DNA of 64,000 nt from Patescibacteria group bacterium (GTDB lineage: Bacteria > Patescibacteriota > Patescibacteriia > JACRDY01): assembly GCA_041653535.1 (NCBI GenBank), contig JBAZFH010000005.1, forward strand, positions 12,012 to 76,011, written 5' to 3'. The notes beneath the pieces are model-generated. The model searched no databases and was not told where the DNA came from. It worked only from the letters and a program-made list of their open reading frames with translations. The position numbers and the translations under genes were made by a program. Shown here piece by piece: positions 13,206 through 55,329 of the stretch (the stretch's first letter is position 1; the number at the start of each line of letters is the position of its first letter).

Positions 13206-13354
13206 ATTCACTCATTCAACCGGTCGCCTAAAAACGTCCGGTTTTTTGTTTAAAAAAGAAATAATTGTCATAGAGACGATTCATGAATTGCCCCTACAGA
13301 CATCAAAAAATAACCTTGCAAATAGCCAATTTTAGTGATAAACTGATAATTACT

Positions 13355-33500: not shown

Positions 33501-36500
33501 TTCCGGACCAAGCAAGGCTCCGGCAGCGGCACCTACCGCCTGTGAAGCACCGATAATTATTTTTCTATGTTTTTCCAGATTTTTTCTGCGCAAAAAATTG
33601 CTTTCCAGGTCGTTGGTTATCTGTTGAACCGTCTCGGTTAATTTTTTAGCATTTTTTATCTTTAAAGTCGTAAAATATTCCACCTTTTCCCGCAGCCGAA
33701 CGTAATCTCCAGGGTGCTGTTTTTTAAATTTCTGATCCAAAAGTTGCGCTCGAGCTCTAGCCATCAGTTGATCATTGACGTTATCCTTGTTTAGTTGTTC
33801 GGCGGTGATAAATCCTAATTCTCTAAAACCACCCATCTTACTGGTTGCCAGTATAGCGGCGCTTTCAAAAGCTTTGGCTCCAGAATAAGCAAAAAGTCCC
33901 TGGCGGACAGCCGGCATAGTACGCGCCAACATACCGGCAAAAGTAAATACTGCGGCTGTTTTCATTTTTTCTTTTGCCGTTGTACCGCCGCTCCATAGTG
34001 ATTTTAATGAATCCGGCAAAACCCGATCGAGCCAGGAAAAACTTTTTTCCAAAACACCAGGAGCCCGATCCGCTATTTTTGCCTCCATCACCGCAGTGCT
34101 GCGATCCACCGCTAACAACGCTCTGACCTGATCTAATATTTTATCAATATTTTCCGCAGGCATTTCGGTATTTTCCAGTTTTTTCCGGATATCGTCCAAA
34201 TAAACAGAAGATTGCATATCAATAAGTTTTTCATACCTGACGTAATCATTATTTTTTCTGGCTTTATTTTTTTCTTGATCAAAATCGGCAAAAACCCTTT
34301 CTTGTCGATCGATTTGATGCTGCTTACTAATAGCTAAGTCGGCTGTTAGATTGGCAACGAGTAAATTCAGCCACTGTTGTCCCTCAGGAGAATCTTTGCT
34401 TATTTCTCTTTTTATTTTTTTTAAATTGTCGCTTAGCTCCCGTTCGGATCTACCTCCGGAAATTTTAGCGTCAATCATACGTACCACTCCCATACTCAAC
34501 GCTCCGCCGACTCCACCGGTTGCTAAAGTGGCGACTGTCCCTATCCCGGCGTACATTCCGATTTTTCCCGTTACTTTTCCCGCTCCTTTTAGCTTGCTCC
34601 AAAAACCACGCTTAGTGTCGGTTCTGCCTAGTTGTTTTGCCAGCTCTGTCAGTTCTTGCTCCCTGCGATCAATGCTCCGATAAATATCATCTTGATCTAA
34701 ACCAGTCAAATCTAAAAAATTTTTGGCAAGATTATTTAATCCGCTGCCAGAAGTCAATATTTCTTTTAAAAGCTGGCTTATTTCTTCAACCACTCTTTGG
34801 TCGCGAAAAAATTCTTTACTGTTAGCAAATTTGGCTTGTTGCAAAGGTTTAGTTAACTCCTCATAATCAGCTCCCGGCATCGCCATCCTGATCTTCGCCT
34901 CATTAATTATCTCACGGATATCCTTGTTTTTTTCTTTAGGAGCGGCTAAATATCTTTTTATCAAATCGAGCAGATCTTTATATTTTTGCTCCGCCCGGAC
35001 TAGAGTTTCAATATTTTCCAGCGTTGCTTCACGCTGATACCACTCTCTGGCGTTAGACACGTCTTCCCGCAAAAGATAGACCTCTTTTTCCAAGGGAAAT
35101 TCCGGCCATTTATTTTTTATAAAACCAAACATTTCTTCGCTAAGGACAGACAATTGTTTCGCCTGGTCTACCAGCGATTCTATCGCATCTTTTGAACCTA
35201 CCATACTTTTTTTCTCTGCCGTTCCTGATTCTATATTATTTTTATTTTCTTCCGTCGTTTCTAGAGAATAATCAATTTTTTTATCATTAAAAAAATCTTT
35301 AATGTTATTGATCAAGCCAGGCGTGCGGCGTTCAACAAAATCTAAATAAATCTGAGTATTTGCCGGATTATCAAAATCAAAATCTGGGCTGTTTATTTTT
35401 TTAACATCCGCATAATACTGTTGTATTGCCAAACCTACCGGGTCGTTTTCAGAAAAATTGGAAAAATCGTGATGTTTTTTCAAAACAGACAAAAGTTTAT
35501 CCGCTTCTTGTCGAACGGCTAAAAATCTTTCCTTCAACTCGCCTCCTTCTTTTTCGATAGCCGTCTCTCCTGGATTTATTTGCCATTGAGCTAAAGTATC
35601 TAAAGAAAAATCATGATTTAAAAATGATTCTCCCATACGATGAGCGGTCACCATGCCATCATTTTCATCAACCTCTTTGATTATCCAGTCATTTTCATAT
35701 TGTCCATTGATAAAAACTCTTACCATGTCGCCGGCTATTAACACGCCGTTGGCGACCCTTTCCCAATTCTCTTTCTGGTTATCATGAGCCGCCTTTATAA
35801 TTTCTTTCATTTTTTTCTCTGTTTCATCTATCTCTCCAGTAGACAATTTCGCCAAAAATTTTTGATCAAATCCATTATTAATAAAAGACTCTCTCTGTCC
35901 ATAATCCTGCGGGGACAGAAAATAGGTCAATTCCGACGGCATCTCTTTCAATACAATAAATCTATCAAGCAACCGTTCCACTGCTTGTTTATGTTCTTTA
36001 GGATTATTAATAGAATCCAAAGACGTTGCTCCTTTATCTAACCCCTTTTCTGGCAAGCGGTCCCGTACTACTAATCGAGCGATCTCATCCGCCTCTCGTC
36101 CACTTATTATTGATTCTTTTTTTATGCCCTTCACTACATAATCGCTATCGCTAAATTCAGGAAAATCATAATTTTGTATCGTTTCTTCGGTGGAGATTAT
36201 TTTACCGTCGCCATTTTGACGGATAACATTCTCTCCGGACGCAATGCCAAATTTTTGGGGGTGGAAAGTACTTACTTCCTTACTACCGGCGTTGACATCT
36301 ACCGCAACGTCAAAATCACCGGATGCGGCCGCTTTTTTTAGCATCTCGGCTTCTTTATCGCTCAATCTTCGTTCCACCGGTTTTGGGATATTAGCGGGAC
36401 GAGACTTTTCCTGAGCTGATATCGCTGTATTATTTGCCCCACTTAAAGCTTCGTTTGTAACATCTATTTCTTCCCTTTCTGGTGGTTTTTTTTCCGTATT

Positions 36501-41339: not shown

Positions 41340-41729
41340 AAATTAGTAGCTAGTGGCTAGCGACTAGCAACTAGTGACTGGCGATTTTTACTGCCAGCTA
41401 CCAACTGCCAGCTACCATTTTCTGTCCCTATTCTATGTAAAATTTAGGTAAAAGTCAATTTAAAAAATTTTAGTTAGTGTAAAAAATGGGCTAATTTGAC
41501 ACATTTATCTTTATATTTTATATCAAAAAACGCTATTGACAAAGATTGTCTAACTTGGTAGGCTGCTATGATAAATAGAATTTTGACAATTAAAATAAAG
41601 AATTGAAAAATGGAGGTGAAAAAGATAGTAGTCTGGCTTATTTAGAGCCAAAACTTTGTTCGTGCGTGTTCTTACAATATGTTCAGTGTCCAACTCCAAC
41701 AACCCATTCATGTACAAGGAGAAAGAAAA

Positions 41730-42947
41730 ATGTCCGATGACACCAAGAAAACCGACGGAATCACCAATGTCGCCGCTGCCACCGCACCGACCTATCCGCC
41801 CGCTTGGACGGAACGCGTCGGCAAGTTCGCCGACCTCGTCGGCAAGAAACTCGAAGACGTGACCACCGCCCTGGCCGATGTCGCCGGCGCCGCCGGTGAT
41901 GACGCCCTGGCCGTGCTCGCGGACGAAGCGAGCTCGCCTTTCGACGATCTCAAGAACGCTCTCGCGTCCCTGAAGATCCCGTCCGGCGTCCTGCGCAAAA
42001 ACGTCGCGATCCTGCGCGGTCCCAAACCCGAAGCTCCCGCCGCCACTCCCGCCGCCGGCCCGTCTTTCGACGTGCTGCCGAGCGTGCCCGGTGACGACGC
42101 CAGTTTTCTCGAGCTGCTGAAAGTCGGCGGCATCCTGAAGATCGGCTCGACCGAGGTCATCTCGGCGATGAAGGCCGCCTTGGCCAATCGCCTCGACATG
42201 TTCAAGCTGCCGAAGAAAATCATGGAAGCCATGGAACGCTTCGCCGAAGACCAGGAAGAACCCTGCGGCGAAAGCTACTACAAGCTCCAGGATCTCGTCA
42301 CCCGTCGCAGCTACGCGGAAGTTTTGTCCGCCCTGGGCGTCAAGGGTCACCTGGTCAGCGAGAGCCGCAAGAACGAGCTCCTCGGCAAGACCGACCTGCT
42401 CTGGCCGGCCCTGCAGAGCTTCCACGAACAGCTGATCAACTGGCAGACCGCCTGGACTCAGGGCGCCAATCCGACCATGATGTTCGCGGCGATCGCGTCC
42501 ATGGCCAGCGGCGGCAACTCGATGATGCCTCCGGGAATGATGCAGCCCCCCGACACCGCCGGTCTCCGCGACGCGGCCGAAGGCGTGATCAACAAGATCA
42601 ACAAGGTCTTCGCCGGTCACGGCATTCCGATCGCGCGAGCGCTCGCCTATGACGCCACGCAGATTCGTGCCCTTCTCGAAGAGCCGACGCTGCCGACGCA
42701 CATGGGCGTCGCCAACCGCGAACAGATGATCAAGATGCTGGGCGTGTCTGTTTCCGCAGATCTGCTCCGCCTCGAACGCAACGTCTGCCGCTACGCGCTG
42801 GCGGTCATGGAACTGCCCAAGATCCCGTCCGGTCAAAGCGAATACGGCTACCTCGGCGCCATGATCCAGCTCGGTATCCAGATCCCCTGGGACACGCTGC
42901 TTTCCGGCTCCAGCGCCACCGCTCGCCCGGGTCGCAAACCCTTCTAA
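41730..42947 (+). CDS. hypothetical Ala-rich protein (406 aa), first gene of the GC-rich island
   Basis: Strong GC3 codon bias in this frame and an AAGGAGAAAG SD. The antisense 516-aa ORF (41550..43100) is an artefact of high GC. Terminator at 42971-43005. Confidence 0.6.
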   Translation: MSDDTKKTDGITNVAAATAPTYPPAWTERVGKFADLVGKKLEDVTTALADVAGAAGDDALAVLADEASSPFDDLKNALASLKIPSGVLRKNVAILRGPKPEAPAATPAAGPSFDVLPSVPGDDASFLELLKVGGILKIGSTEVISAMKAALANRLDMFKLPKKIMEAMERFAEDQEEPCGESYYKLQDLVTRRSYAEVLSALGVKGHLVSESRKNELLGKTDLLWPALQSFHEQLINWQTAWTQGANPTMMFAAIASMASGGNSMMPPGMMQPPDTAGLRDAAEGVINKINKVFAGHGIPIARALAYDATQIRALLEEPTLPTHMGVANREQMIKMLGVSVSADLLRLERNVCRYALAVMELPKIPSGQSEYGYLGAMIQLGIQIPWDTLLSGSSATARPGRKPF

Positions 42948-43036
42948 TTCCACCAACCTCATCAACCTAAAGGGCAGGGAGCAATGCTCCTTGCCCTTTT
43001 TTTTCGACAACCGCACAACTAAAAAAGGAGATATTA

Positions 43037-44068
43037 ATGAGCGGAAACAACTATAGCGACTATCGTAGTCGCGGTATCGCCTATAGCGGCTTTGCCTCAA
43101 GCGATGAGCGCGAAAGGAAAAAAGCAGAAAAACTGCGCGCCGAACGCGTCGAGAAAGCCAAGGAGACGGTGCACGAAAAAAGCACCAAGGCGCGCCCCAA
43201 ACGTGAAGACAACGCCGTCTATGACGACAAGCTGGTGCGCCTTGGCATCACCAAACCGAAACCCGGCGTCAAACGCGTCTACGTCATCTATATCGACAAC
43301 AGCGGCTCCAACCGAGTCATCGCCGCCCATTTGCGGAAAAGCTCGGCCTGGCTGCTGTCTCTTCTGAAGATGCTCGACCCGGAAGCGCAAATCGCTTTCG
43401 TCTATTTTTCCGACCACACCGACGGCAGTCAGTTCACGCAGGAAGTCGATTTCGTCTCCCCCGACGAAGAGGGCGACAAGATCATGTTCTCGACGATTTC
43501 CCATATCAGCGCCGCCAACGGTTTCGATGTGCCGGAAGCGCACGAATGCGCGCTCAAAGCCGCTTGCGAGATCAACTTCGGCGGCGCGGTCGAAAAGCAT
43601 CTGATCATGATCAGCGACGTCGTTGGCCATGGCATGGGCATGCCCTTTGATGACGGTTGCCCGGCTCAGCAAAGCTGGAAAAAATCCGTCGAGCTGGTCG
43701 CCAAGACCTACGACACTTTCCATTTCATCGGCTGCGGCGACGATGCCGAGGTCTGTGAGTTGCAGCAGCAGTTCATCTCTGACCCGAAACGAGTCCCCTG
43801 GGATCTGATCGACCTGTCGATGGTCAAAGACGAGCAGCACCGCATGCGCATCACCGGCAACGCCATCATGTTCCTCATTGCCCGCCAACTCGGTCGGCAA
43901 GCCATGGAAATGTTCCTCGGCTTCCTCTACGAGAAATGGCTCGACGATCCGATTTTTGGCGAAGCTACCGACGCGCGCGCCCAGGAAATGATTCGACGCT
44001 TCACCAAATATCTGGAATGGCCGGAAACCGAAATCGAAGACATGCTCAAGAAAGTCTTCGTCCAATAA
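43037..44068 (+). CDS. von Willebrand factor A (vWA) domain protein, TerY-like
   Basis: MIDAS-like IYIDNSGSN (DxSxS) after a basic N-terminal region. AAAGGAG SD. Terminator at 44085-44122. Confidence 0.6.
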   Translation: MSGNNYSDYRSRGIAYSGFASSDERERKKAEKLRAERVEKAKETVHEKSTKARPKREDNAVYDDKLVRLGITKPKPGVKRVYVIYIDNSGSNRVIAAHLRKSSAWLLSLLKMLDPEAQIAFVYFSDHTDGSQFTQEVDFVSPDEEGDKIMFSTISHISAANGFDVPEAHECALKAACEINFGGAVEKHLIMISDVVGHGMGMPFDDGCPAQQSWKKSVELVAKTYDTFHFIGCGDDAEVCELQQQFISDPKRVPWDLIDLSMVKDEQHRMRITGNAIMFLIARQLGRQAMEMFLGFLYEKWLDDPIFGEATDARAQEMIRRFTKYLEWPETEIEDMLKKVFVQ

Positions 44069-44143
44069 TCCGTCATCAACACGTGGCTGCCCCGTCATCT
44101 GGCAGGGCAGCCATATTTTTTTCTCACAGAAAGGAGTTGGAAA

Positions 44144-46426
44144 ATGAGTGACCGCCAGTTGCTTACTCGACTCCTCGCTGCGACCAAAAAAGGTGGCGGA
44201 CTGGAGTCTTTGCGCGACGCGCTGGAACAAATTGTTTTTGCCGACGAAGCAGAAAAAAACCACGCCACCAAACTAGTGGCTGTCGCCCACCTTACTGCCT
44301 TTCACGCGCAACCGCAAGAACTGGTCCACGCCATCCCGCTGCTAGCAAAAATCAACGACTGGGAAACGCTGCAAACGATCCTAAAAATCGGTCACGACTA
44401 TGGTCGGCTCGACCTGGTACAAAGCATCGACCAAATTGGTCGGCAAAAAAATCTGCCGGCGTTACAAGTTACGGACTTTGCCGAGTGGATGCAAAATTTT
44501 TCCATCTACTGGATTGACCTGTGTTATGACAAAAAAAACAATCTGGTTTTTGTCGATCTGCAGTACGAAAAGATTCTACGGCAAACAATCGCCGAAAACT
44601 TTGAGCCGCCGCTTTTCTGGTCTAATGTACTACTGCAGCTGGACCTGCAAAAACATTTGTCCCCCGAAAGAAAAATAATCTTGGCCAAATTGGCCGCAGG
44701 GCAAAACCCCGTCTGCCGGCCATTCACCGAACATCGACAAAATGTCTATAAGCGATTTGGCGAGTATTGCGAAAACAACGACTTGGAAATTGTTAAAACT
44801 TTGCAAGTCGGTATCGAAAGCTCTCGTCGCTGCAGCTACGTTTATCTGGTTCGCGACACTGACGGTATCATGAAGGTCTACAAAGAAATTCTTGACTACC
44901 GCCGCGGTCCGTTGGCCGAAAGCTACGACAGCGAAGACGAACTCTATGAAACGATTGGTCAAAACGATTTTCTGCCGGCGTACCTTGCCACGGTAATCGT
45001 CGATAAAGATTTACGCTTTGCCAAATTGGAATTCCAGTACGCTCAAAGTCTGGCTGACTATCTGCGCGACGGCGAACCGCTGGAAAAAAATCTGGCGATC
45101 CGCATCATGCTGCAGCTAGCCAAAAACCTGAAACGACTCCATCGGCGCAATATCATTTTCCTGGATCTCAAACCGGAAAACGTGGCGCTGACGGATCAAG
45201 ACGTTAAGCTTTTTGACCTGGGTGTTTCCCGCCAAATTAAATCGACGGATAAAATCAACGCTTTTCTCGCCGATCCGCGCTATGGCACGCCAGAAACCGG
45301 TCTGGAACTAACAGCGTCTACCGCTTCGGACGTGTTCCAGCTGGGAATAATTTTCCACCAACTGTTGACCGGTTATCACCCGTTTGCTTTTGAAGGAACG
45401 ACCGACAATCGGGAAGAACAAATCTTGCGCTACTTCTGGCCAACAGTGGTTCTTCCCTACGAGCACGATCTGGCAGTAAAACTACGAGACGATCGGCTGA
45501 AAATCATCAACGCGATGTTGGACAAAAATCCGGCGCTGCGCCCCGGTCTTGAACAAATAATCGCAACGCTAGAAGAAGGAGAACAAACCGCCGTCACAAC
45601 CCAAGCAGCACAGAGAAAAGACACCAGACTAGAAGAAAACAATACAGTGCTTTTCCCGGCACGCATGGGTATTCCCCATAAAGGACACATCGAGTACATC
45701 TCACGGCTGTTGCAACTAGGATTTCACGTTACGATTTCCTTGCAGCGCAGCTACACTATCACTGACCGCGATCCGTTACCTAAATGGCTAGTAGCCAAAA
45801 TGGTAGCTAGATCCCTACTCGATCGTGGATTTACACCCGATGACTTCGATTTTATTTTCACACCGCTGTACAAAGAACGTCGAGAGATGGAAATCCATTT
45901 TGCGATGCTGCCGTCGGCGGAAAATATTGTCGCTGTTGCTTCTAGCAATCTGAGCGTCCACGATCTTTTTTCGCGATACGCCATCTTTGATCAAAAAACG
46001 GTCTTTGGTAGCGCTGGCGAGGAATTCGAAGATCGTTCGTGGGGAGAGATCATTCGCGGAGCAGTAAAAAACAACGACTACCAAAAATTTTCCGAGTATG
46101 CGGCCAGCGGCGTAGAAAAAATCTTGCCGTTGGACCAAATCCGAAAAATCTACGGCAGTCCAAATATCGAATTCGTCAGCGGATCAGTCAATCTGGTTTT
46201 GCTCGACGAAAACGACCAAGAAATCGCTTCCGGAAGAGCTTTCCGTTTCGTTGGACCAGAAATAAGTCTGCTGCGCCATTTAGTGCGTGCTGGACATGAG
46301 GTCGAGTTAATCGATCCTTACGCCAATGACACGCTCGTCAAAATCGACGGACAGACCAAACATCTGAAATACCTCCGGACCGAATTTTCGGCCGGAAATG
46401 AATTCATTTATTTCCAAAGCGTCTAG
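44144..46426 (+). CDS. multidomain protein: N-terminal unknown domain + Hanks-type Ser/Thr protein kinase domain + C-terminal HxGH nucleotidyltransferase (cytidylyltransferase-like) domain
   Basis: Kinase catalytic loop IIFLDLKPENVAL, DLG (KLFDLGVS), GTPE. C-terminus FPARMGIPHKGHIEYI is the (T/H)xGH nucleotidyltransferase signature. Confidence 0.65.
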   Translation: MSDRQLLTRLLAATKKGGGLESLRDALEQIVFADEAEKNHATKLVAVAHLTAFHAQPQELVHAIPLLAKINDWETLQTILKIGHDYGRLDLVQSIDQIGRQKNLPALQVTDFAEWMQNFSIYWIDLCYDKKNNLVFVDLQYEKILRQTIAENFEPPLFWSNVLLQLDLQKHLSPERKIILAKLAAGQNPVCRPFTEHRQNVYKRFGEYCENNDLEIVKTLQVGIESSRRCSYVYLVRDTDGIMKVYKEILDYRRGPLAESYDSEDELYETIGQNDFLPAYLATVIVDKDLRFAKLEFQYAQSLADYLRDGEPLEKNLAIRIMLQLAKNLKRLHRRNIIFLDLKPENVALTDQDVKLFDLGVSRQIKSTDKINAFLADPRYGTPETGLELTASTASDVFQLGIIFHQLLTGYHPFAFEGTTDNREEQILRYFWPTVVLPYEHDLAVKLRDDRLKIINAMLDKNPALRPGLEQIIATLEEGEQTAVTTQAAQRKDTRLEENNTVLFPARMGIPHKGHIEYISRLLQLGFHVTISLQRSYTITDRDPLPKWLVAKMVARSLLDRGFTPDDFDFIFTPLYKERREMEIHFAMLPSAENIVAVASSNLSVHDLFSRYAIFDQKTVFGSAGEEFEDRSWGEIIRGAVKNNDYQKFSEYAASGVEKILPLDQIRKIYGSPNIEFVSGSVNLVLLDENDQEIASGRAFRFVGPEISLLRHLVRAGHEVELIDPYANDTLVKIDGQTKHLKYLRTEFSAGNEFIYFQSV

Positions 46427-46483
46427 AACAAAAACTAGGCGCTTTTTTATTTAAACAGCTTAGTGCACAGTGCTTAAATAGAT

Positions 46484-46690
46484 TGGCGGGGGTTCAGGGG
46501 CGGAAGCCGCGCCGAGCCCCGCCCCGTTTCGGTAATTATGGTCTGCAGGGGCGGGGCGGGGTAAGGGAACCTTAAGGTGATAAGGACAAGCGCTTGCTTC
46601 CAGCCCCCGGAACTTTTTGCTTACTTTTTGGTTACAAAAAGTAAGTGCCCGCCCCTGCCTACCGGCAGGCAGGCGGCATGAGGGCAAGCC
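46484..46690 (+). repeat. GC-rich roughly 210-bp structured element, copy 1 of 2 (about 90% identical to 57572-57775)
   Basis: Contains the conserved hairpins cttactttttgg-ttac-aaaaagtaag and cctgcc-NNNN-ggcagg, and the ggggcggggcgggg tract. Confidence 0.8.
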
Positions 46691-46844
46691 ATGAGTTAAT
46701 TTTATATTACAACCAAATATAAACTACTTGGCAAATCATTTAAAAAACTACACTAAGTGACTAAAATGCTTGACTATTTAGCTGTTTTTGATAAGATATA
46801 ATGTCTAGAATTTTGACAATACAAAAAAATCAAAGGAGACAAAA

Positions 46845-47468
46845 ATGGGTACTACTTTGACCATAGATTATCCCAATGGACTCAAAAATATTCTGACGGC
46901 AATGACTTACTACAGCAAACCGGCGTTGATCGCTATTGCCGGATGTAGCTGCAGCGGAAAAAGCTTTCTCGCTAAAGCTTTGAACGAAGCGTCTCCCGCA
47001 ACAATACTGCCGTTGGATAATTTTTTCCGTGATATTGACGATCCTGCGCTACCGCGCGATAAAAACAACAGACATCTTTTCGAAGCTCCTGAATCCTATT
47101 GGAAAGATCAGTACTTAGCTGCAGCGGTGGCTTTACTGACCGGCAAAACAGTTATTCTGCCAACTTACGATCTGGCAACTAACAAAAGATTGCCTACGAC
47201 CGGACAAACAGTGTCGCCGAACACAACTATTGTCGCAGAAGGACTCTACGCTATCACTTTTTTGTCCGCGCTGTCCGCGCCAGTACTCAAAGTCTTTCTG
47301 GATACCGATCTGGAAATCTGCCTGAATCGACGCATCGCGCGCGATGTGCCGAGATGGAACATCACCGCGGAAAAAGTACGAGAAATATTTTTTGCCAAAG
47401 TGCTTCCCTATTATCAAATGTTCATTGCTAAACAAAAAAGTTTGGCTGATATAGTCATCAAAGAATAA
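46845..47468 (+). CDS. P-loop nucleoside/nucleotide kinase, uridine kinase/phosphoribulokinase (PRK) family-like
   Basis: Walker A IAIAGCSCSGKSFLAKAL. PLDNFF, ILPTYDLATNKR, IVAEGLYAI and DTDLEICLNRRIARD parallel Udk motifs. Confidence 0.65.
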   Translation: MGTTLTIDYPNGLKNILTAMTYYSKPALIAIAGCSCSGKSFLAKALNEASPATILPLDNFFRDIDDPALPRDKNNRHLFEAPESYWKDQYLAAAVALLTGKTVILPTYDLATNKRLPTTGQTVSPNTTIVAEGLYAITFLSALSAPVLKVFLDTDLEICLNRRIARDVPRWNITAEKVREIFFAKVLPYYQMFIAKQKSLADIVIKE

Positions 47469-47489
47469 ATAAAGAAAGGAGACCCCCGC

Positions 47490-48602
47490 ATGGACATTGA
47501 CCTGCAAAGGGTATACGACATTATTTTTGGCTCGGTGCGAGCTGAAGACGTATTTGGCGATCTTATTGATCGTCAAAACAAAACGTCCAAAGAACAGTTG
47601 TTGGAAGCCGTTTACGCCGACCTGGCCGCAATCGTTGATCCAAAAAAGTACACCTATCCGGATGACCGAGAATTTGCCGCTGATGCCCAGTTCAAACTGA
47701 AAACTTTCTACGAGAAAGCCAAGGAAAAACTGGCCAGCGGATTCTATGGCGCGACCGCCAATCCCAGTATCCATGTCTCTCGCGGACGACCAGCTTTTGC
47801 AACCGAAAAAAGATCGTACTACCTTGGTCAACCAATCGCCGAAGGCGACATAGCCACCATTTATGTTGGCGACTGCGTCATGGGCGATGACTTTGCTGGC
47901 CGCGTGGCGATTAAAATCGTCAACGATCCGGCTGACAACGACCTGGCCCGCAACGAGATCCGGGCTCTGACCGAGCTGCACTCCAAAAAAGGCGCTCAAC
48001 GCAAACATCTGCCGATACTGCTCGACAATTTTTTGACTGAAGACGACCAAGTTGGTTTGGTGTTTCGATTCTTAGACGATAGCTACGATCTGCTGGCCGT
48101 TAAGGAAAAATATCCTCGCGGCGTTGATCGCAAGCATATGGTCTGGATGCTCAACCGGCTACTGTCTGCTGCTGGCTATGCCCACAACTGGGGCATGGTC
48201 CACGCTAACATCGAGCCGAGCAACCTGATGGTTCGTCCACAAAACCACAATCTGTTCATGATCGACTGGACCAGTGCGGTGATCCGACCGGCCGAAACCG
48301 GCGACACTTTCAAAGTCTACAACCCTGAATTTAGCGCGCCGGAAGTCAAAGAAGGAGGTCCTGCAACACCAGCTTCGGACTTATATTCGATTGGCAAGTG
48401 CATGATCTATATCCTCGGCGGCAATGTCGAAGACAATACCATGCCCGACACAGTCGAAGAAGAACTCCAACGCTTTATCCATTTCCTGGTTTTGGAAAGT
48501 CAGGGTGGACGAGCGCAAGATGCCTGGAAAATGCATCATAAACTCATCTCTTTAGTCGAAGGACTTTGGGGACCAAGAAAATTTCTGGTCTTCAGCATGT
48601 AA
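47490..48602 (+). CDS. protein-kinase-like protein with degenerate catalytic loop (HAN in place of HRD)
   Basis: VAIK present (RVAIKIV). HANIEPSNLMV replaces HRDLKPEN. DWT replaces DFG. SAPE and DLYSIGKCMIY are conserved. Confidence 0.55.
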   Translation: MDIDLQRVYDIIFGSVRAEDVFGDLIDRQNKTSKEQLLEAVYADLAAIVDPKKYTYPDDREFAADAQFKLKTFYEKAKEKLASGFYGATANPSIHVSRGRPAFATEKRSYYLGQPIAEGDIATIYVGDCVMGDDFAGRVAIKIVNDPADNDLARNEIRALTELHSKKGAQRKHLPILLDNFLTEDDQVGLVFRFLDDSYDLLAVKEKYPRGVDRKHMVWMLNRLLSAAGYAHNWGMVHANIEPSNLMVRPQNHNLFMIDWTSAVIRPAETGDTFKVYNPEFSAPEVKEGGPATPASDLYSIGKCMIYILGGNVEDNTMPDTVEEELQRFIHFLVLESQGGRAQDAWKMHHKLISLVEGLWGPRKFLVFSM

Positions 48603-48638
48603 CCAAAAACCACCAGACAAACAAAAAGGAGAAGTATC

Positions 48639-50117
48639 ATGGGTGGAGGCGGTGATCATTATGAACGCGACGTAGACATGAATGCGCGCCGACGGCAGGT
48701 CGAACAACATTTCGAGCAAGTAACCAAACCCAAGCCGCCGGAAGAACGCAAAGTCGCGGCAACTCTTGATCCCAAAAAGATCGAAAAGTTGGTCAGCGAC
48801 GACAGCGAAGAATACCCCGAAACAACTTCAATCGCCGTGATTATGGATCTGACCAGATCGCGCGGCAAGGACCTGATCGACATCTTGACCAAGATGCCGC
48901 TGCTGATGGGTCAAGTCATGCTGGAAGGCTACGTGCGTAATCCGGCCATCAGTTTTTGCGGTGTTGGCGACGCCACTGACGGCGACGCCGCTCCTCTGCA
49001 AGTCGGTCAGTTTGAAACCGACGACCTGATCGACAGAGTCTTGCAAGCGATGTGGCCCGAAGGTGGCGGTGGTGGCAGCGGGCAAGAATCCTACCAGCTG
49101 GCGGCGTACATGTACGCCATCAAAGCCGAGCTCGCTTCGCTCAAAAAGCGCAACCAGAAAGGCTACCTTTTTATAATCGGTGATGAGGGTTTCTACCCGA
49201 AAGTTTCGAAAGACGAAGTTAAACGCGTCATCGGCGCCTCCATTCCCAAAGACATTCCTTCGGCGGAAATTTTCCGACTGCTCCAAGAAAAATTCAACGT
49301 CTTCTTTATCTACCCGGCCAAGTCCTGGGAGGAACGCAAAGAAGACATCGACGAAGAAATCGCCGCCCGTGTCCGCAAGGCCGGCGGTATGATCGAAGGT
49401 GTCGATATACGATTCTCGCTAGCCTGGTCCAATCGCAACGATCTGGATTTGCACGTCATCGATCCCGACGGCTTCGAGATCTACTACGGCAGCAAGGTTT
49501 CCCGCAGCGGCGGCATGCTCGATGTCGACATGAACGTCCACGGCGAGACCACCAAGCCAGTCGAAAACACCCGCTGGGCCAAAGGCAAAGCGCCCAAAGG
49601 CACGTATCGAGTCTTTGTCCGAAACTACGGCTTCCACGAAAACACCCGCGCCGCTACGCCATTCCGAGTCGAAATCGAAATCGGCGGTGAGGTAGAGCAC
49701 TTCGAAGGCAAGACTCCGGCCAACTCCTCCGGTGCAGGTAGTGATGTCGAGGTCGGAACCTTTACCTTCGATCCCCAGAAGGTCAGAGCAAAAGACGGCG
49801 ATGAAAAATACGCCGGCTACAGAGACAATGTTGTGTTGACTCAGTGGGGCAGCGTGATCCCGCAGGAAAACATTCTGCGGTTAAAAAACCCCAAAGCCAT
49901 CGTCGACGCGATGCTCGGCGTACTGGCTATTTGCAGCGGTAGCCGCACGTTGCCGGCCTACCTGCAAGACATGAAAAACCGCGGTCAGACAGTCACGCGA
50001 ATCAAAGAAATTGAAACTTCGCTTGACGGACTGGCTCAAGTCGCGAACACACCGAAAGTGACAATCCGCAGCACCGGCGGCGGCAAGACTCGCAAGAGCG
50101 GCGCTACCCGAATCTAG
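48639..50117 (+). CDS. vWA domain protein with Gly-rich linker and C-terminal beta-rich domain of unknown function
   Basis: MIDAS-like AVIMDLTRSRG (DxTxS). GGGGGSG linker. C-terminal ...LHVIDPDGFEIYYG...MLDVDMNVHG.... Confidence 0.6.
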   Translation: MGGGGDHYERDVDMNARRRQVEQHFEQVTKPKPPEERKVAATLDPKKIEKLVSDDSEEYPETTSIAVIMDLTRSRGKDLIDILTKMPLLMGQVMLEGYVRNPAISFCGVGDATDGDAAPLQVGQFETDDLIDRVLQAMWPEGGGGGSGQESYQLAAYMYAIKAELASLKKRNQKGYLFIIGDEGFYPKVSKDEVKRVIGASIPKDIPSAEIFRLLQEKFNVFFIYPAKSWEERKEDIDEEIAARVRKAGGMIEGVDIRFSLAWSNRNDLDLHVIDPDGFEIYYGSKVSRSGGMLDVDMNVHGETTKPVENTRWAKGKAPKGTYRVFVRNYGFHENTRAATPFRVEIEIGGEVEHFEGKTPANSSGAGSDVEVGTFTFDPQKVRAKDGDEKYAGYRDNVVLTQWGSVIPQENILRLKNPKAIVDAMLGVLAICSGSRTLPAYLQDMKNRGQTVTRIKEIETSLDGLAQVANTPKVTIRSTGGGKTRKSGATRI

Positions 50118-50132
50118 CTCTATTTAACCATC

Positions 50133-50170
50133 CAACCAAACCCCGTATCGTCTAGGTACGGGGTTTTTCT
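50133..50170 (+). terminator. Rho-independent terminator (ccccgtatcgtctaggtacgggg + T5)
   Basis: Hairpin plus T-run. Its 5' flank caaccaaacccc and ctagg loop resemble the terminator at 53146-53180. Confidence 0.6.
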
Positions 50171-50186
50171 TTTTTCAGTAAATAGG

Positions 50187-50212
50187 ACAGGATACAGGAG
50201 ACAGGATACAGT
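50187..50212. repeat. (ACAGGAK)n heptamer repeat, 3.5 units
   Basis: gacaggatacaggagacaggatacag. Confidence 0.75.
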
Positions 50213-50219
50213 GCCGCTA

Positions 50220-50585
50220 TTATGACTTTAATTTTCTTATAGAACCGCTTAGTAACTTTTTAGTTAAAACTGTTTGATCAGCAATCTTAGTAAAGCAAAC
50301 ACCACCTATATAACCCAAGTCTTGTGCTATCAAAAGCTGACTTTGCACCTCGACTAAGGAGCCGAAAGCAATGGAATAAAAATTAATTTTTTCCGGCTTG
50401 GACCTACGGGCAAAACCTTCAGCTATATTAGAAGAGACTGATACAGATGCGCGTCTAATCTGACTACTTAAACCAAACCTCTCGTCTTCCGAAAAACCCT
50501 TTGAAGCCTTATAAACTAACAAAACAAGCTTATGAGATTCCTGCCATGACTTCATCTGAAAAAATGACTTTATTATTTCTGTCAT
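50220..50585 (-). CDS. four-helix-bundle protein (23S rRNA intervening-sequence protein / Avd-like family)
   Basis: SWQESHKLVLLVYKASKGFSEDERFGLSSQIRRASVSVSSNIAEGFARRS...FYSIAFGSLVEVQSQLLIAQDLGYI matches the TIGR02436/PF05635 pattern. AT-rich, unlike the flanking island genes. Confidence 0.75.
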   Translation of the reverse strand: MTEIIKSFFQMKSWQESHKLVLLVYKASKGFSEDERFGLSSQIRRASVSVSSNIAEGFARRSKPEKINFYSIAFGSLVEVQSQLLIAQDLGYIGGVCFTKIADQTVLTKKLLSGSIRKLKS

Positions 50586-50650
50586 ATTGTTTTTATCGTT
50601 TATCCAGATAATACCAAAATCAATATTAAATCTTTCTAAAATCTCCCCGG

Positions 50651-50677
50651 CCTCCTGTCTCCCGCCTCCTGTCTCCT
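50651..50677. repeat. (CTCCTGT)-type heptamer repeat, 3 units, inverted relative to 50187-50212
   Basis: cctcctgtctcccgcctcctgtctcct. Confidence 0.7.
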
Positions 50678-50758
50678 ATATATTGACTTTTTCCCTTTTC
50701 ATTGCTAAATTAACATGTCGAACCTTTACAATAAAACAGTCAAAAAGGAGATGTACCC

Positions 50759-51724
50759 ATGACTATGTGGATTGCGACTTTACCGCCGATTCATCGGCGT
50801 GAGTTGCTGGAAAAAATCATCAACCATCCCATGATCGGTGGCGTCCGCTACAACAGCGGCTATGCCTCCGGCTCCAACCCTGAAGACACCCTGATAACCA
50901 TTATCGAACTAATCCGCGCCGCGGGTAAAAAGCTTTGGATTGACCTGAAAGGTCGTCAACTGCGCATCGACAGATGGGCGACTCCTGATTACGGCAAAAT
51001 CGTACTCAACCATGAAGTTGAAATTTATGGTCAGGCATTTGTCCTTTTTCGCGGAGAATCCGATTTGTCCGAAATCGTCAAGGCAAACGGTCGCGTAATC
51101 TACGTTGATCCGCCACCGAAGTATGCTGTCGGTCAAAGCCAAGCAATCAACGTCGCCGGCGACATCCGTATTAAAGGTTTTTTAACCAACACGGATATTG
51201 CCTATGTCAAAGCGGCTGTGAAATTAGGTAATCCTTATTTCATGCTGTCATTCGTCGAACAGTGTTCGGACTGGCAGCAAGTGAAAAGCTTGATCATGTC
51301 CAGTTCCGGATATTCACCGGAACAGGAATATGAGCTCGTTCTCAAAATCGAATCGACTAAAGGCTGGGACTATGCCAGCCGGTCGATTAATCTGGGAACA
51401 CTCGCCAAAGAGCGCCTGCGACTGATGGCAGCACGCGACGACCTAATGATAAACATCGGATCAACTAAGTCAAAGATTCTCAAAGCGACGCAAGAATTGA
51501 TAAACATCGACCGCAGTGCCATCGCCGCCTCCCGACTTTTCGCCAACGTGGAAAAAGACGGCAAGGCGTCACTCGGCGATTTTGCTGACTTGCATTTGCT
51601 TTACGGCATGGGATACCGACACTTCATGATATCAGATGGCGTTTGTCTTCATCACTTCGATGAAGCGATAGCGGCGGCTAATGACTATTACACCGAATAT
51701 CCGCAGCATCTCACCCTGGAATGA
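50759..51724 (+). CDS. PEP/pyruvate-binding TIM-barrel superfamily protein (pyruvate-kinase-barrel/HpcH-HpaI-like)
   Basis: LKIESTKGWDYASRSI and LMAARDDLMINIG parallel the pyruvate kinase motifs KIEnqEG and MVARGDLGiEi. Moderate GC (about 50%). Confidence 0.5.
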   Translation: MTMWIATLPPIHRRELLEKIINHPMIGGVRYNSGYASGSNPEDTLITIIELIRAAGKKLWIDLKGRQLRIDRWATPDYGKIVLNHEVEIYGQAFVLFRGESDLSEIVKANGRVIYVDPPPKYAVGQSQAINVAGDIRIKGFLTNTDIAYVKAAVKLGNPYFMLSFVEQCSDWQQVKSLIMSSSGYSPEQEYELVLKIESTKGWDYASRSINLGTLAKERLRLMAARDDLMINIGSTKSKILKATQELINIDRSAIAASRLFANVEKDGKASLGDFADLHLLYGMGYRHFMISDGVCLHHFDEAIAAANDYYTEYPQHLTLE

Positions 51725-51736
51725 CAAGGAGAAAAA

Positions 51737-53125
51737 ATGGCTCCGACAATCTATATTGTCACCGATCTAACGTTTGGAGACGGGGGCAAAGGAACGATCG
51801 TCGACGCCCTCGCCCGACATACGGGGATAAAAAACATCGTCCGTTTCAACGGCGGGTCGCAAGCAGCGCATAACGTGATAACACCTCAAGGGTTGCATCA
51901 TTGCTTCGCCCAATTTGGCTCCGGCATGCTTTTGCCAGACACTCACACTATTGTTTCTCGCTATATGCTCATTAACCCTAGCAGCATGCTTGTTGAAAAT
52001 TCAGCGTTGCAAAACAAAGGCGTAACAAGCGCCATGGCACGAACTTTTATCAGTGAAAACAGCGCCATTATCACGCCTTGGCACGAACTAATCAACCAAA
52101 TGCGCGAAATCGCCCGCGGTAACAATCGTCACGGCAGCTGCGGCAAGGGAGTATGGGAAGCCACTTGTGATTTGAATTATTCAAGTCGAATAACACTGTT
52201 TGCCAAAAATTTGGATAAAATCGATTTGATCAAAGAAAAAATCGGTTTCATCCAACAGATGAAGCTCGATATTGCCGAGCAACTGTATGACCAAAATCCT
52301 GCTTACCGCGAACAACTTTTTCCTTTGCTGGAGAAGGTTCGTTGGGCGGATCAGGAAAAAATCGCCGAAAGCTACCAAGCTTTTTTCAAACAAGCAAAAA
52401 TCGTTACCGACGATTTTATCTTGGAAAAAATCTGTCGGCAAGGTGCGATATTCGAAGGCGCTCAAGGAGTATTACTGGATGCCGACTACGGTTTTCATCC
52501 GTACGTCACCAGCAGCAATACCACGATGATCAATGCCGAAGAGATGCTGAAGCAAGCTGGCATTTCACCGCAAAGGCAAACGGTCCGTATCGGTGTAATG
52601 CGCGGTTATATGACGCGTCACGGTGCCGGACCGCTCGTTACTGAAGACCAAGCACTGCACAATTTCGTCCCGCCCGATCACAACGAATGGAATGACTGGC
52701 AGCAAGACTTTCGTCTCGGCTGGTTTGATCTTATAGCGACCAAATACGCGCTTAGCGTAGCCGGTAAAATCGATGCGCTGGCCATCACCAATCTTGATCG
52801 TATGGCAAAAATCCCGCTGGTCAAAGTTGCACTATTCTATCGTGGCAAAGAAGTTCGCCCCGATCTCTTCATTAGTAATGGTGAAGATGTGATAGTACAA
52901 ATAAGGAAACCGGCACTGCCTCAGCAAAATGAAAACAACGCCCTGACCAACGCCTTGTTCGCAGCTGAGCCGGTTTATTTTTCCGATCATCTTTGGACCG
53001 GAAAAAATATCGCCGACCGATACGTCGACCCCGGTTACATAAAATTTTTGGAAGAAAGACTCGGTGTCCCGGTAAAAATTTTGTCTTTTGGCCCCACCGC
53101 CAAGGACAAGCTATTCTATCCCTAA
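51737..53125 (+). CDS. adenylosuccinate synthetase (PurA)-family protein, divergent
   Basis: N-terminal P-loop TFGDGGKGTIVDALA (PurA has GDEGKGK) and RFNGGSQAAHNV (PurA has GGHNAGHT); length 462 aa. Atypical substitutions suggest a paralogous function. Confidence 0.65.
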   Translation: MAPTIYIVTDLTFGDGGKGTIVDALARHTGIKNIVRFNGGSQAAHNVITPQGLHHCFAQFGSGMLLPDTHTIVSRYMLINPSSMLVENSALQNKGVTSAMARTFISENSAIITPWHELINQMREIARGNNRHGSCGKGVWEATCDLNYSSRITLFAKNLDKIDLIKEKIGFIQQMKLDIAEQLYDQNPAYREQLFPLLEKVRWADQEKIAESYQAFFKQAKIVTDDFILEKICRQGAIFEGAQGVLLDADYGFHPYVTSSNTTMINAEEMLKQAGISPQRQTVRIGVMRGYMTRHGAGPLVTEDQALHNFVPPDHNEWNDWQQDFRLGWFDLIATKYALSVAGKIDALAITNLDRMAKIPLVKVALFYRGKEVRPDLFISNGEDVIVQIRKPALPQQNENNALTNALFAAEPVYFSDHLWTGKNIADRYVDPGYIKFLEERLGVPVKILSFGPTAKDKLFYP

Positions 53126-53390: not shown

Positions 53391-54058
53391 AGCTTAAGTA
53401 AGCAAGATGACCGCCCCCCACTTTCTATGTTTTATGTCTACATTTTAAAAAGCCAAAAAGACGACAAGCTTTATATTGGCTTTACTAGTGACTTAAAACG
53501 CAGATTTCAGGAACACCAAAATAAAGAGAATAAATCGACAAAAAACAGAACTCCTTTTATTTTGGTCTACTACGAATCCTATCGTTCAAAATCAGACGCG
53601 ATGAAACGGGAGAAAAATTTAAAACAGTTTAAAAACAGCTACTCTCATCTAAAAAAGCGTCTTGGCGATAGCCTTAAAACATAGAAAATGGGGGGAGGAA
53701 AGTCCGAACACCCCTCTGGCTGTAAAGCTAGAGTGACAAAGAGAGTCGCTAACGGCGACCGGGAGTAATCCTAGGGAAAGTGTCACAGAGACAATACTAT
53801 CCCCCACATATTATGTGGGGGACAAAGGTGAAAAGAGAAAAGGTGTATTTTTAGAAAATCATATGATTTCTAAAGACTGCTACTTTTCTTCCTCTTGGGC
53901 GACCAAGATGTGATGGTAAACCCTCTCTGGTGCAAGAGCCAATTTGGTTGCTCGCTTGATCCTGTCAGCAATGGCAGGACTAGATAGATGGTCATCCTCC
54001 CTCACATAATTTATGTGGGGGATGACAGAATTCGGCTTACCAGCTTGCTTAAGCAATA
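53391..54058 (+). ncRNA. rnpB: RNase P RNA (bacterial) with a roughly 270-nt insertion in P3 that encodes a GIY-YIG protein
   Basis: P4 5' strand GGAGGAAAGTCCG at 53695-53707. GGGAAAGTGTCACAGAGA (P10/11 region). 3' ACAGAATTCGGCTTA...CTTGCTTAAGC pairs with the 5' GCTTAAGTAAGCAAG as P1. Terminator at 54059-54093. Confidence 0.7.
53427..53684 (+). CDS. GIY-YIG domain protein (UPF0213-like, 85 aa) encoded within the P3 helix insertion of rnpB
   Basis: MFYVYILKSQKDDKLYIGFTSDLKRRFQEH is a GIY-YIG motif. The start codon sits in the 5' strand, and the stop codon in the 3' strand, of a 13-bp extended P3 stem (tttctatgtttta/taaaacatagaaa). Confidence 0.7.
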   Translation: MFYVYILKSQKDDKLYIGFTSDLKRRFQEHQNKENKSTKNRTPFILVYYESYRSKSDAMKREKNLKQFKNSYSHLKKRLGDSLKT

Positions 54059-54189: not shown

Positions 54190-54648
54190 ATGTTTGGGTT
54201 TTGTATTGCCCTGTTGATATTTGTTTTTAGTTTTATCTTCAACACCCTGTCTGAAGGCATCAGCTCAGCCGGACACTTCCTCTACATTTGGAATTGGGTT
54301 TTTGGCATCGGTAAAGTCGTACTTCTGAGTTTGGTCGCCTTCGGCATTACCGGTTTTATCGGTCTTGGCGGCGCTGGCGCCGCTAGCCAAAAATGGAGCT
54401 CGCGCGGTGCGATGATCCTAGGAGGACTGCTTGGCGCTGGCGCTGGGGGCGTGGTCTCGGGTCTGATCTTCATCAAGGCTTTGATCAAAAACGCACTGCT
54501 GATCCTAGGCGCTTACCTGATCACCCTCTCCGGCACCGCCAGTATGTCTTTTGATCAGTTCGACAAAACCAAACTGTTCGTCGGACTGGCAATAGTGGTC
54601 ATCGCCTTATTGTTATTCCGTAAAAAAAGTAAGGATTCATCCAAATAA
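54190..54648 (+). CDS. small polytopic membrane protein, paralog 1
   Basis: Shares ISSAGHFLYIWNWVF and IGAYLITLSGTASM(S/T)FDQFDKTKLFVGLAIV with 54847..55329. Each has its own copy of the promoter-like sequence ttattgacacttttaccaaaacctgataagctttt and its own terminator. Confidence 0.5.
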   Translation: MFGFCIALLIFVFSFIFNTLSEGISSAGHFLYIWNWVFGIGKVVLLSLVAFGITGFIGLGGAGAASQKWSSRGAMILGGLLGAGAGGVVSGLIFIKALIKNALLILGAYLITLSGTASMSFDQFDKTKLFVGLAIVVIALLLFRKKSKDSSK

Positions 54649-54846: not shown

Positions 54847-55329
54847 ATGAGTGACAAGATGTTAGGTTTTCTAATCGCAGCGATCGCATTTGTTGTCAAC
54901 AACCTTTTTTTCAAAACCCTACCCGAAAGCATCAGTTCGGCCGGACATTTTCTTTATATCTGGAACTGGGTCTTCGCCGGACTCAACGTTGCGTTGTCTG
55001 TTTGTTTCTCCCTTGGTTTAATCAACCTTACTGTCAACAGCACCGACGCTGATGCCGCGAAAGAAGCTACGAAAGCTATCAAAAATATGCTCCGAATCGG
55101 ATCCGGCGGCGTAATGTCCAAAATCAATTTCATCAAAATGCTGATCAGAAACACCTTGAGTATCATCGGCGCTTACCTGATCACCCTCTCCGGCACCGCC
55201 AGTATGACCTTTGATCAGTTCGACAAAACCAAGCTGTTCGTCGGACTGGCAATAGTGGGCGTTGCCTTATTCCTCTCTAAGAAAAAAGTCGTAGGGGTTG
55301 TCATGATCAATGACCGTGAAACCGCCTAA
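54847..55329 (+). CDS. small polytopic membrane protein, paralog 2
   Basis: See paralog 1. AAGGAGG SD. Confidence 0.5.
   Translation: MSDKMLGFLIAAIAFVVNNLFFKTLPESISSAGHFLYIWNWVFAGLNVALSVCFSLGLINLTVNSTDADAAKEATKAIKNMLRIGSGGVMSKINFIKMLIRNTLSIIGAYLITLSGTASMTFDQFDKTKLFVGLAIVGVALFLSKKKVVGVVMINDRETA

Follow-up and report, generated by a model that had tools for sequence, protein, structure and literature searches.

What does a homologue of the purine-biosynthesis enzyme adenylosuccinate synthetase (PurA) do in a GC-rich gene island of a Patescibacteria chromosome? The gene in question lies at 51737-53125 (+) in a 64-kb stretch of contig JBAZFH010000005.1 (GenBank assembly GCA_041653535.1), which was analysed over its whole length and is referred to here as the window. 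An earlier note on this DNA, made from its sequence alone, had pointed to the clustering of the PurA-like gene with genes for a uridine kinase (Udk)-like kinase and for a TIM barrel of the phosphoenolpyruvate (PEP)/pyruvate family, and had proposed that the three form a pathway to a modified nucleotide, on the analogy of PurA paralogues such as phage PurZ. We find that the PurA-like protein is a divergent paralogue, and that the core of the locus is a conserved, mobile three-gene module made up of a predicted pseudokinase with a J-domain-like N-terminus, a von Willebrand factor A (vWA) protein and the PurA-superfamily enzyme. The genes for the two constant partners occupy 47490-50117, inside the stretch that the note itself described, and had been overlooked there; the sharing of the module with phages and its linkage to NAD and ADP-ribose genes lie beyond what the sequence of the window alone could show.

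Results

A PurA paralogue with a rebuilt substrate pocket

The 462-aa product of 51737-53125 matches PF00709 (Adenylsucc_synt) at 231 bits, as expected of a PurA-like GTP-dependent ligase, and fails both NCBIfam equivalog models for PurA, scoring 197.5 against NF002223 (cut-off 402) and 181.7 against TIGR00184 (cut-off 395.55), as well as the NCBIfam model for PurZ, NF038379 (53.5, cut-off 300). Database searches with the protein return a tight family of 40-47% identity, against which E. coli PurA scores only ~129 bits. All of the PurA-like open reading frames (ORFs) that we collected from cells and viruses (168/168) score higher with the window protein than with E. coli PurA, and when phmmer is run against phiVC8 PurZ the median score of the family is 0. 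The earlier note had named tight clustering with canonical PurA, and retention of all of its substrate residues, as observations that would speak against a changed function. In a neighbour-joining tree of the family with E. coli PurA, a canonical Anaerolineae PurA and phiVC8 PurZ, the family instead formed a clade of its own, separate from all three, in 39 of 50 bootstraps.

Substrate residues were surveyed by aligning 206 cellular and 81 viral family sequences to E. coli PurA, whose numbering we use and whose residues we take to have the roles in phosphotransfer and in guanine, aspartate and IMP-phosphate binding that are given in the PurA structural literature. The residues for GTP binding and phosphotransfer are kept (D13, K16, H41 and D333 in 100% and S414 in 97% of the 206 cellular sequences, Q224 in 99%) and are all present in the window copy. 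Because the P-loop, the catalytic residues and the guanine-specificity residues are conserved, the family has probably retained GTP-driven O-phosphorylation chemistry. The remainder of the active site has changed. Among the contacts to the 5'-phosphate of IMP (N38, T129, T239 and R143), T239 alone is kept (96%, and in the window copy); R143, the contact that the dimer partner makes to the IMP phosphate in E. coli, is not conserved. In the aspartate pocket, R131 becomes M, K, V or L, the T300/T301/G302 segment becomes W-Q (98-100%, with T300 deleted and T301 replaced by W in 98%), R303 is variable or deleted, and R305 is replaced by F or L (F in 87%), so that the aspartate loop, TTGRRR in E. 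coli, reads xWQxxF. Three positions are newly fixed in the family: Q38 (N38Q, 100%), C129 (T129C, 99%) and H273 (V273H, 100%). The P-loop of the window copy reads FGDGGKGT, and the earlier note had drawn attention to its GDGGKG; the variant is there, as a quirk of the window copy or its lineage and not as a family trait, since position 14 is A in 51% and E in 36% of the family.

Because the equivalog cut-offs are failed and the aspartate residues and part of the IMP-phosphate residues are replaced family-wide, we conclude that the protein is distinct from both PurA and PurZ. The suggestion that it is a PurA paralogue with changed function is in this respect supported. An ordinary adenylosuccinate synthetase, serving IMP-to-AMP salvage in a Patescibacterium without de novo purine synthesis, would fit the strong PF00709 match, the name adenylosuccinate synthetase given in public records and the general reliance of Patescibacteria on salvage, and the likeness to PurA (EC 6.3.4.4) does extend to the PF00709 fold, the P-loop, D13, H41, Q224 and the guanine-specificity residues D333 and S414. 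We nevertheless regard this explanation as extremely improbable. The protein reaches only about half of the NCBIfam equivalog cut-offs, the aspartate-site residues R131, R303, R305 and T301 have disappeared throughout the family, and the family differs from PurA in its rebuilt aspartate loop, its altered 5'-phosphate contacts and its new invariants C129 and H273. Moreover, it occurs in phages and in actinomycetes, which have a purA of their own, and is encoded with pseudokinase and vWA partners. Only one canonical PurA is encoded in the collected loci, in L042 at a distance of 3 kb from a family member; the two proteins can thus coexist.

A conserved module in cellular genomes

A genome scan with one genome per species placed the PurA-like family in at least 584 species genomes, with hosts among the Chloroflexota, Actinomadura and other actinomycetes, Myxococcota, Acidobacteriota, Patescibacteria, Proteobacteria and one Woesearchaeote. 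Upstream of the PurA-like homologues stands a constant pair of genes, one for a ~370-aa 'Pkinase' protein and one for a protein of 330-500 aa without a domain match. In the window these encode a J-domain-like protein with a predicted pseudokinase domain (47490-48602, +; Pfam Pkinase, E 1.6e-14) and a 492-aa, long-form vWA-domain protein recognised through AlphaFold and Foldseek (48639-50117, +). Of the 80 genome-scan loci used for our neighbourhood counts, 67 have a vWA gene and 60 a pseudokinase gene no more than 6 kb from the PurA-like gene. The triad is complete in 60/80 loci and in 55 of the 64 where at least 2.6 kb of upstream sequence exists, a linkage that also tells against an ordinary PurA. 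It is found on Rhodococcus megaplasmids as well, including pRHL1 of RHA1.

Two loci show unusual arrangements of these genes. A Bdellovibrionales metagenome-assembled genome (L020:7611-10544, +) has the vWA and PurA-like proteins in one continuous ORF, which may be a natural fusion or an assembly artefact. On a Saccharibacteria contig (L085), what appears to be a partial tandem duplication has left three vWA-like ORFs and two ORFs like the mini pyruvate kinase described below around one PurA-like gene.

The same module in phages

A tblastn search of sequenced phages identified full-length PurA-like homologues (37% identity, ~235 bits) in 202 Bxz1-like (cluster C) mycobacteriophages, which we take to be lytic; the remaining phage matches reached at most 135 bits. 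The kinase, vWA and PurA-like genes of the Bxz1-like phages correspond to gp267-270. In Gizmo, gp267 is annotated 'ser/thr kinase', gp268 is hypothetical, gp269 encodes 88 aa and gp270 is the PurA-like protein, with gp267 related to the window pseudokinase (29% identity, E 2e-39) and gp268 to the window vWA protein (39% identity, E 8e-41). A relative is encoded on 298 stretches of IMG/VR. Neighbourhoods were compared for the best 80 of these, 61 of them family-level: a vWA gene is present in 58/61 and a pseudokinase gene in 51/61 family-level loci, and the more divergent copies also retain both. Most of the contigs measure 100-500 kb, and their GC content ranges from 0.27 to 0.70. When 559 neighbouring ORFs were clustered to look for a fourth conserved phage partner, none occurred in more than 5 viral loci, which makes the triad a self-contained mobile unit.

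Phage databases label the gene 'PurA-like' or, by propagation, with the name of PurZ. RefSeq and the PHROG family phrog_1211 call the cluster C homologues (Gizmo gp270, locus L092, and ~200 related records) '2-aminooxy adenylosuccinate synthetase', as they do phiVC8 PurZ, and PHROGs otherwise offers unnamed families only. This shared product name, common to the mycobacteriophage members, is what speaks for a PurZ-type enzyme making 2-aminoadenine (Z) nucleotides, and the family does resemble PurZ in being a phage-borne PurA paralogue with altered substrate use. However, PurZ is a protein of ~340 aa that is archaeal-PurA-like, uses aspartate as its substrate and travels with datZ, mazZ and dpoZ, whereas the proteins of the PurA-like family are ~460 aa long, lack the aspartate pocket and share their loci with genes for a pseudokinase and a vWA protein. 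No datZ-, mazZ- or dpoZ-like gene was detected in the window by Pfam scans. Taken with the low score against the PurZ model, the phmmer median of 0 and the separate clade, this makes a PurZ-type activity barely credible, and the analogy to PurZ on which the earlier note had relied is not upheld. Because the family fails the PurZ model and has no aspartate pocket, the PurZ product name on the mycobacteriophage genes is probably over-propagated, that is, a mis-annotation.

The constant partners: a predicted J-domain pseudokinase and a vWA protein

A census of the kinase-like partners showed that the VAIK Lys and the alpha-C Glu are kept, that HRD reads H-G-A, or H-G-N in the subgroup with long vWA proteins, and that the metal-binding Asn of the catalytic loop has become His; in the window copy the loop reads HAN..N. 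Because the catalytic Asp is gone, the family of 47490-48602 is predicted to consist of pseudokinases, the domain of which, judged from sequence, probably still binds nucleotide. The N-terminus of these proteins is J-domain-like. The pattern Y-R-x-L-A...HPD...A-F-x-x-L, with the HPD tripeptide that J-domain co-chaperones have between helices II and III, is present in 48/56 viral and ~33/62 cellular copies, and Pfam recognises DnaJ in L161 and, with a weak match only, in L089. In the window copy DPK stands where HPD would be expected, as do other loci with the 422-aa accessory gene described below. HPD is kept in 0/8 loci with this gene upstream as against 34/57 without it (Fisher p 0.0016, for loci that are related and so are not independent events). 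In one genome only (L003:15884-21413, -), the module is followed at a distance of a few kb by a GrpE-like gene and a gene for a very large HSP70 (1225 aa), which is of note because of the J-domain-like N-terminus of the pseudokinase partner.

The 492-aa vWA protein has no Pfam match. Its AlphaFold model (predicted local distance difference test score, pLDDT, 81) was matched by Foldseek to the vWA domains of integrin beta (I-like), Ku80 and Sec23 with E 7e-8 and probability 1.0. An N-terminal vWA domain with an invariant DxTxS metal-site motif is followed by a beta-sandwich, which in the long form some sources name YfaP/DUF2135-like, and by a helical tail. The vWA core is itself widespread: among 1.84 billion representatives, 971 representative clusters match it at E<=1e-10, in size classes of ~330 and ~500 aa.

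Lineage-specific accessory genes in the window

In the window the triad is part of an 8-gene island (41679-53125) that was horizontally acquired; GC content is 0.47-0.59 across the island (41-53 kb) and ~0.40 in the flanks. In order, the island encodes a 422-aa protein, a 343-aa protein, a 760-aa active kinase, the Udk-like kinase, the pseudokinase, the vWA protein, a mini pyruvate kinase (mini-PK) and the PurA-like protein. All 8 genes occur in the same order in a Falkowbacteria genome (L013), and the gene order of the window is seen again in L001, L013, L088, L089 and others. The Udk-like kinase, the pyruvate kinase-like barrel and the PurA-like protein are thus present in one GC-rich island as the earlier note had described, each as an ORF with Pfam or structure matches, and Pfam scans of the 64 kb agree with it that no other purine-pathway gene is in the window. 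Because the same order is found in other genomes, the clustering of the three is not due to chance. It is functional, yet it represents a lineage-specific elaboration of the triad: the Udk-like gene is present in 2/80 and the mini-PK gene in 8/80 genome-scan loci, the latter mostly in Patescibacteria and DPANN, and both are commoner among the closest relatives of the window. The proposed pathway therefore stands as a linkage conserved in a subset of genomes, with Udk and PK as minority accessories. A non-canonical nucleotide reaction remains plausible, given a divergent PurA paralogue, its coexistence with PurA and this conserved linkage in a subset.

The Udk-like protein (207 aa; 46845-47468, +) belongs to the Udk family of nucleoside kinases (PF00485, E 9e-20), with uridine kinases as its closest solved structures (E 5e-19), and falls below equivalog level in the NCBIfam udk models (103.1, cut-off 180; 96.3, cut-off 220). 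Its P-loop and catalytic Asp are kept. By our own reading of the alignment, one of its Asn residues aligns with the base-contacting His of chain 3w8r, which we assume to be the residue that sets base specificity. The gene has the same position upstream of the pseudokinase gene in L001, L013 and L088. Nicotinamide riboside kinase was considered as an identity for this protein and dropped, the best matches being uridine/cytidine kinases.

The barrel encoded at 50759-51724 (+; 321 aa) had been described as PK/HpcH-like. By sequence its resemblance to pyruvate kinase is weak (PF00224, 24.7 bits with a cut-off of 30; NCBIfam PK, 43.9 with a cut-off of 432). The top Foldseek matches of its AlphaFold model (pLDDT 94.5), however, are all pyruvate kinases (E 1e-16, template modelling score ~0.7), and its motifs RYN, DLKGRQLR, KIE, ARDD and ASR align with the catalytic R/N, D-K, K-x-E, D and S/T positions of pyruvate kinase. 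The barrel is therefore specifically pyruvate kinase-like, with the A and B domains, and not HpcH-like. It has the fold of those domains and all the catalytic motifs of pyruvate kinase; unlike pyruvate kinase, it lacks the C-terminal regulatory (C) domain, scores below the family cut-offs and is encoded beside a PurA-like gene rather than glycolytic genes. The mini-PK gene ends 13 nt upstream of the PurA-like gene, with which it is probably co-translated.

Three further genes complete the island. The 760-aa protein (44144-46426, +) has a Ser/Thr kinase domain (Pfam Pkinase, E 6.5e-29) that, with D-L-K-P-E-N and DLG motifs, is apparently active, and an N-terminal region without a match. Its C-terminal region contains an HxGH-like motif and is a tentative candidate for a nucleotidyltransferase: TIGR00125 matches residues 502-533 at only E 0.0035, and searches for PDB, Pfam or pairwise support gave none. 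An assignment of this region as NMNAT, for which there is the weak TIGR00125 match alone, was left tentative. Orthologues of the 760-aa protein occur in L013, L088, L003 and L089. The 343-aa accessory protein (43037-44068, +) is recognised through orthologues only, in L013 (371 bits) and L088, and has no Pfam, NCBIfam, PADLOC or PHROG match; the idea that it is a second vWA protein, based on our reading of a 'DNSGSN' motif as a possible metal site, was rejected for want of detectable similarity to the 492-aa vWA protein. The 422-aa accessory protein (41679-42947, +; GC 0.59), likewise known from orthologues only, matches no family and no PDB profile. Its orthologues are 45-57% identical, and the gene lies upstream of the pseudokinase gene in 8 loci.

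Several smaller ORFs lie in or beside the island. Between the vWA and mini-PK genes, 50220-50585 (-) encodes a four-helix-bundle '23S rRNA intervening sequence' protein (PF05635, E 3e-33), and directly after the PurA-like gene an 85-aa GIY-YIG protein is encoded at 53427-53684 (+). Both are probably small selfish insertions; Pfam scans revealed no reverse transcriptase near either. Antisense ORFs of 516 and 388 aa at 41550-43100 (-) and 43097-44263 (-) overlap the GC-rich genes of 41679-44068 and are most likely composition artefacts rather than genes.

Outside the island the window is ordinary Patescibacteria chromosome, with genes for ribosomal protein S1, GyrA, NusB, RNase III, IleRS, RuvA, TrpRS and RNase J and an exopolysaccharide cluster. 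The 1181-aa class I aminoacyl-tRNA synthetase at 13283-16828 (+), which we read as IleRS although its Pfam family is shared by the I, L, M and V enzymes, contains a complete histidine-phosphatase domain (PF00300, residues 522-698, E 1e-34) within its catalytic domain, an unusual architecture. An ORF of 2405 aa without a Pfam match (30540-37757, -) sits inside a cluster of GT4 glycosyltransferases, two of which also match 'GT4-conflict' (PF20706); the cluster further includes DUF4012, DUF11 and a polyprenyl glycosylphosphotransferase. Adjacent genes at 54190-54648 and 54847-55329 (+) encode paralogous small membrane proteins without a family match that share long identical stretches, such as ISSAGHFLYIWNWVF and DQFDKTKLFVGLAIV.

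NAD and ADP-ribose genes beside the module

A gene for an NrtR-type Nudix regulator lies within 10 kb in 19/86 cellular and 7/61 viral loci, an enrichment with p 3e-20 and 3e-6, respectively, against a null frequency assumed to be 1%. It is often directly adjacent to the module, for example upstream of the pseudokinase gene in Actinomadura and downstream of the PurA-like gene on RHA1 pRHL1. NrtR proteins are described as ADP-ribose sensors (PMC9503650). Four viral contigs have NrtR and NAMPT genes, in this order, directly before the triad. NadE-NMNAT fusions occur in 10 loci, among them L013, where the fusion gene lies just upstream of the island, and ADP-ribosyl-glycohydrolase genes in 6. Genes for a nicotinamidase-like isochorismatase, a LOG-like protein, PP2C and histidine phosphatase are sporadic neighbours.

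Such neighbourhoods recall known conflict systems. Aravind and co-workers have described vWA-centred conflict systems including TerY-P (PMC7159879; PMC9503650, section 3.8), as well as ARG-centred systems that bring together NrtR-type Nudix regulators, vWA chaperones and ADP-ribose-processing enzymes (PMC9503650); adenylosuccinate synthetase and PurA are mentioned in neither of them. Like TerY-P (vWA, Ser/Thr kinase and PP2C), the module couples a vWA peptide-binding protein to one of kinase fold, and its gene neighbourhood is mobile and modular. It differs from TerY-P and the ARG systems in that its kinase has a predicted J-domain and no catalytic Asp, and in that its third part is PurA-like and not PP2C, MoxR or ARG; PP2C is found near the module in L088 alone. 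The module could accordingly be imagined as an anti-phage abortive-infection system of the TerY-P/vWA-kinase type, in which the vWA and kinase-like proteins would sense infection and the PurA-like effector would burn GTP or make a toxic or signalling nucleotide. In keeping with such a role are the vWA and kinase architecture, which resembles that of TerY-P, the deviating GC content of the island, the prevalence in Chloroflexota, actinomycetes and myxobacteria, the modular accretion of accessories, the presence of AbiE genes ~2 kb downstream in L005, and matches of the kinase domains to PADLOC mad6 and PD-T4-6, at a generic level only. Against it stand the absence of PADLOC matches for the PurA-like, vWA, PK-like, 422-aa and 343-aa proteins, the missing catalytic Asp of the kinase partner, the lack of PP2C in the window, and the presence of the triad in 202 sequenced mycobacteriophages and hundreds of large viral contigs; nor did a Pfam census of 143 flanking cellular genes reveal a defence-island signature. 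On balance we consider host defence unlikely.

Discussion

The reading that we favour, tentatively and with somewhat less than even confidence, is that the triad is a mobile, regulated GTP-dependent ligase module that acts on the purine/NAD nucleotide pool in phage-host conflict. Since D13, H41 and Q224 are invariant, the PurA-like enzyme is expected to use GTP to O-phosphorylate the oxo group of a nucleotide-like acceptor, the simplest guess being a 6-oxopurine nucleotide. A nucleophile would then displace the phosphate; because W, Q and F have taken the place of the three cationic residues that bind aspartate, this nucleophile would not be aspartate, and ammonia or a neutral or aromatic amine are candidates. 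The pseudokinase and vWA proteins may gate or assemble the enzyme, in most lineages via the J-domain, which would recruit Hsp70. In the version found in the window, the Udk-like kinase might feed in a nucleoside monophosphate, and the pyruvate kinase without a C domain might draw on PEP either for the regeneration of GTP or for conversion of the product into the triphosphate. The module would thereby restore or reshape the adenine-nucleotide/NAD pool during phage-host conflict, a role suggested by its NAD/ADP-ribose neighbours and its carriage by many lytic or large phages.

A number of observations weigh against this interpretation. While the identities of the domains, the pattern of residues, the synteny and the distribution over cells and phages are shown directly, every biochemical step beyond GTP binding is inferred, and a 6-oxopurine acceptor would leave the link to NAD and ADP-ribose without an obvious chemistry. 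Roughly three-quarters of the loci have no NAD-related neighbour, and no family dominates among the 143 flanking cellular genes of the Pfam census. A simple metabolic function does not account for what the J-domain pseudokinase and the vWA protein do, and in the window copy the HPD of the J-domain is degenerate. Lastly, the invariants C129 and H273 hint at chemistry outside the model.

The nature of the partners raises another option, namely that the PurA-like enzyme modifies a protein, for instance by GTP-driven ligation of a purine nucleotide to a lysine or amine of a client presented by vWA and Hsp70. The hydrophobic and aromatic residues that stand in place of the aspartate pocket, the peptide-binding or chaperone-recruiting domains of the partners and the single vWA-PurA ORF of L020 would all suit such an activity. 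We know of no precedent for it in the PurA superfamily, no client candidate was identified, and the Udk-like kinase, mini-PK, NadE-NMNAT and NAMPT suggest small-molecule nucleotide metabolism, so that we judge protein modification to be distinctly improbable, more so than a defence system.

Our preferred reading, a ligase module acting on nucleotide pools, also has to be set beside the phage-borne NAD/ADP-ribose modules NARP1, NARP2 and NARP3. In some viral contigs NAMPT and NrtR adjoin the triad, and the kinase/nucleotidyltransferase pair of NARP3, described as a nucleoside kinase and a nucleotidyltransferase in PMC13464706, resembles the Udk-like kinase and the possible HxGH domain of the island. 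Unlike the module, the NARPs contain no PurA-like, vWA or pseudokinase protein, and Pfam and NCBIfam searches of the window found none of the NARP enzymes (Adps/Namat, Nampt/Nmnat, PnuC/NadR). In literature searches and a targeted reading of PMC9503650, PMC7159879, PMC13464706 and PMC2330246, we found no description of a J-domain pseudokinase and a vWA protein that are linked to a PurA-like enzyme.

We see in the PurA-like family a PurA clade that has been neofunctionalised within a new module, and the chance that its chemistry is new is a real one. PurZ and the Z-genomes were an earlier surprise to come from a PurA paralogue, and the present family is a second and much more widespread neofunctionalised clade, extending over at least 584 species genomes, ~300 viral contigs, 202 sequenced mycobacteriophages and ~1,000 clusters of the vWA partner. 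It combines a conserved catalytic core with a rebuilt pocket and chaperone-like partners, a combination for which we found no study in the searchable literature. The hypothesis can be tested in tractable systems, such as cluster C mycobacteriophages on M. smegmatis and plasmid pRHL1 of Rhodococcus jostii RHA1. The ADP-ribose-sensing regulators and the links to NAD salvage place the module at an active front of NAD-centred conflict between phages and their hosts. In a bolder form of this proposal, which we think possible though less probable than not, the triad would represent an unrecognised class of phage-host conflict module that performs a new GTP-driven ligation, for example one that aminates a purine nucleotide directly or N-substitutes it, or one that re-assembles an adenine or nicotinamide dinucleotide, under the control of a switch that involves Hsp70 and ADP-ribose sensing, and with which phages may rebuild or re-tool the nucleotide and NAD pool that host immunity destroys.

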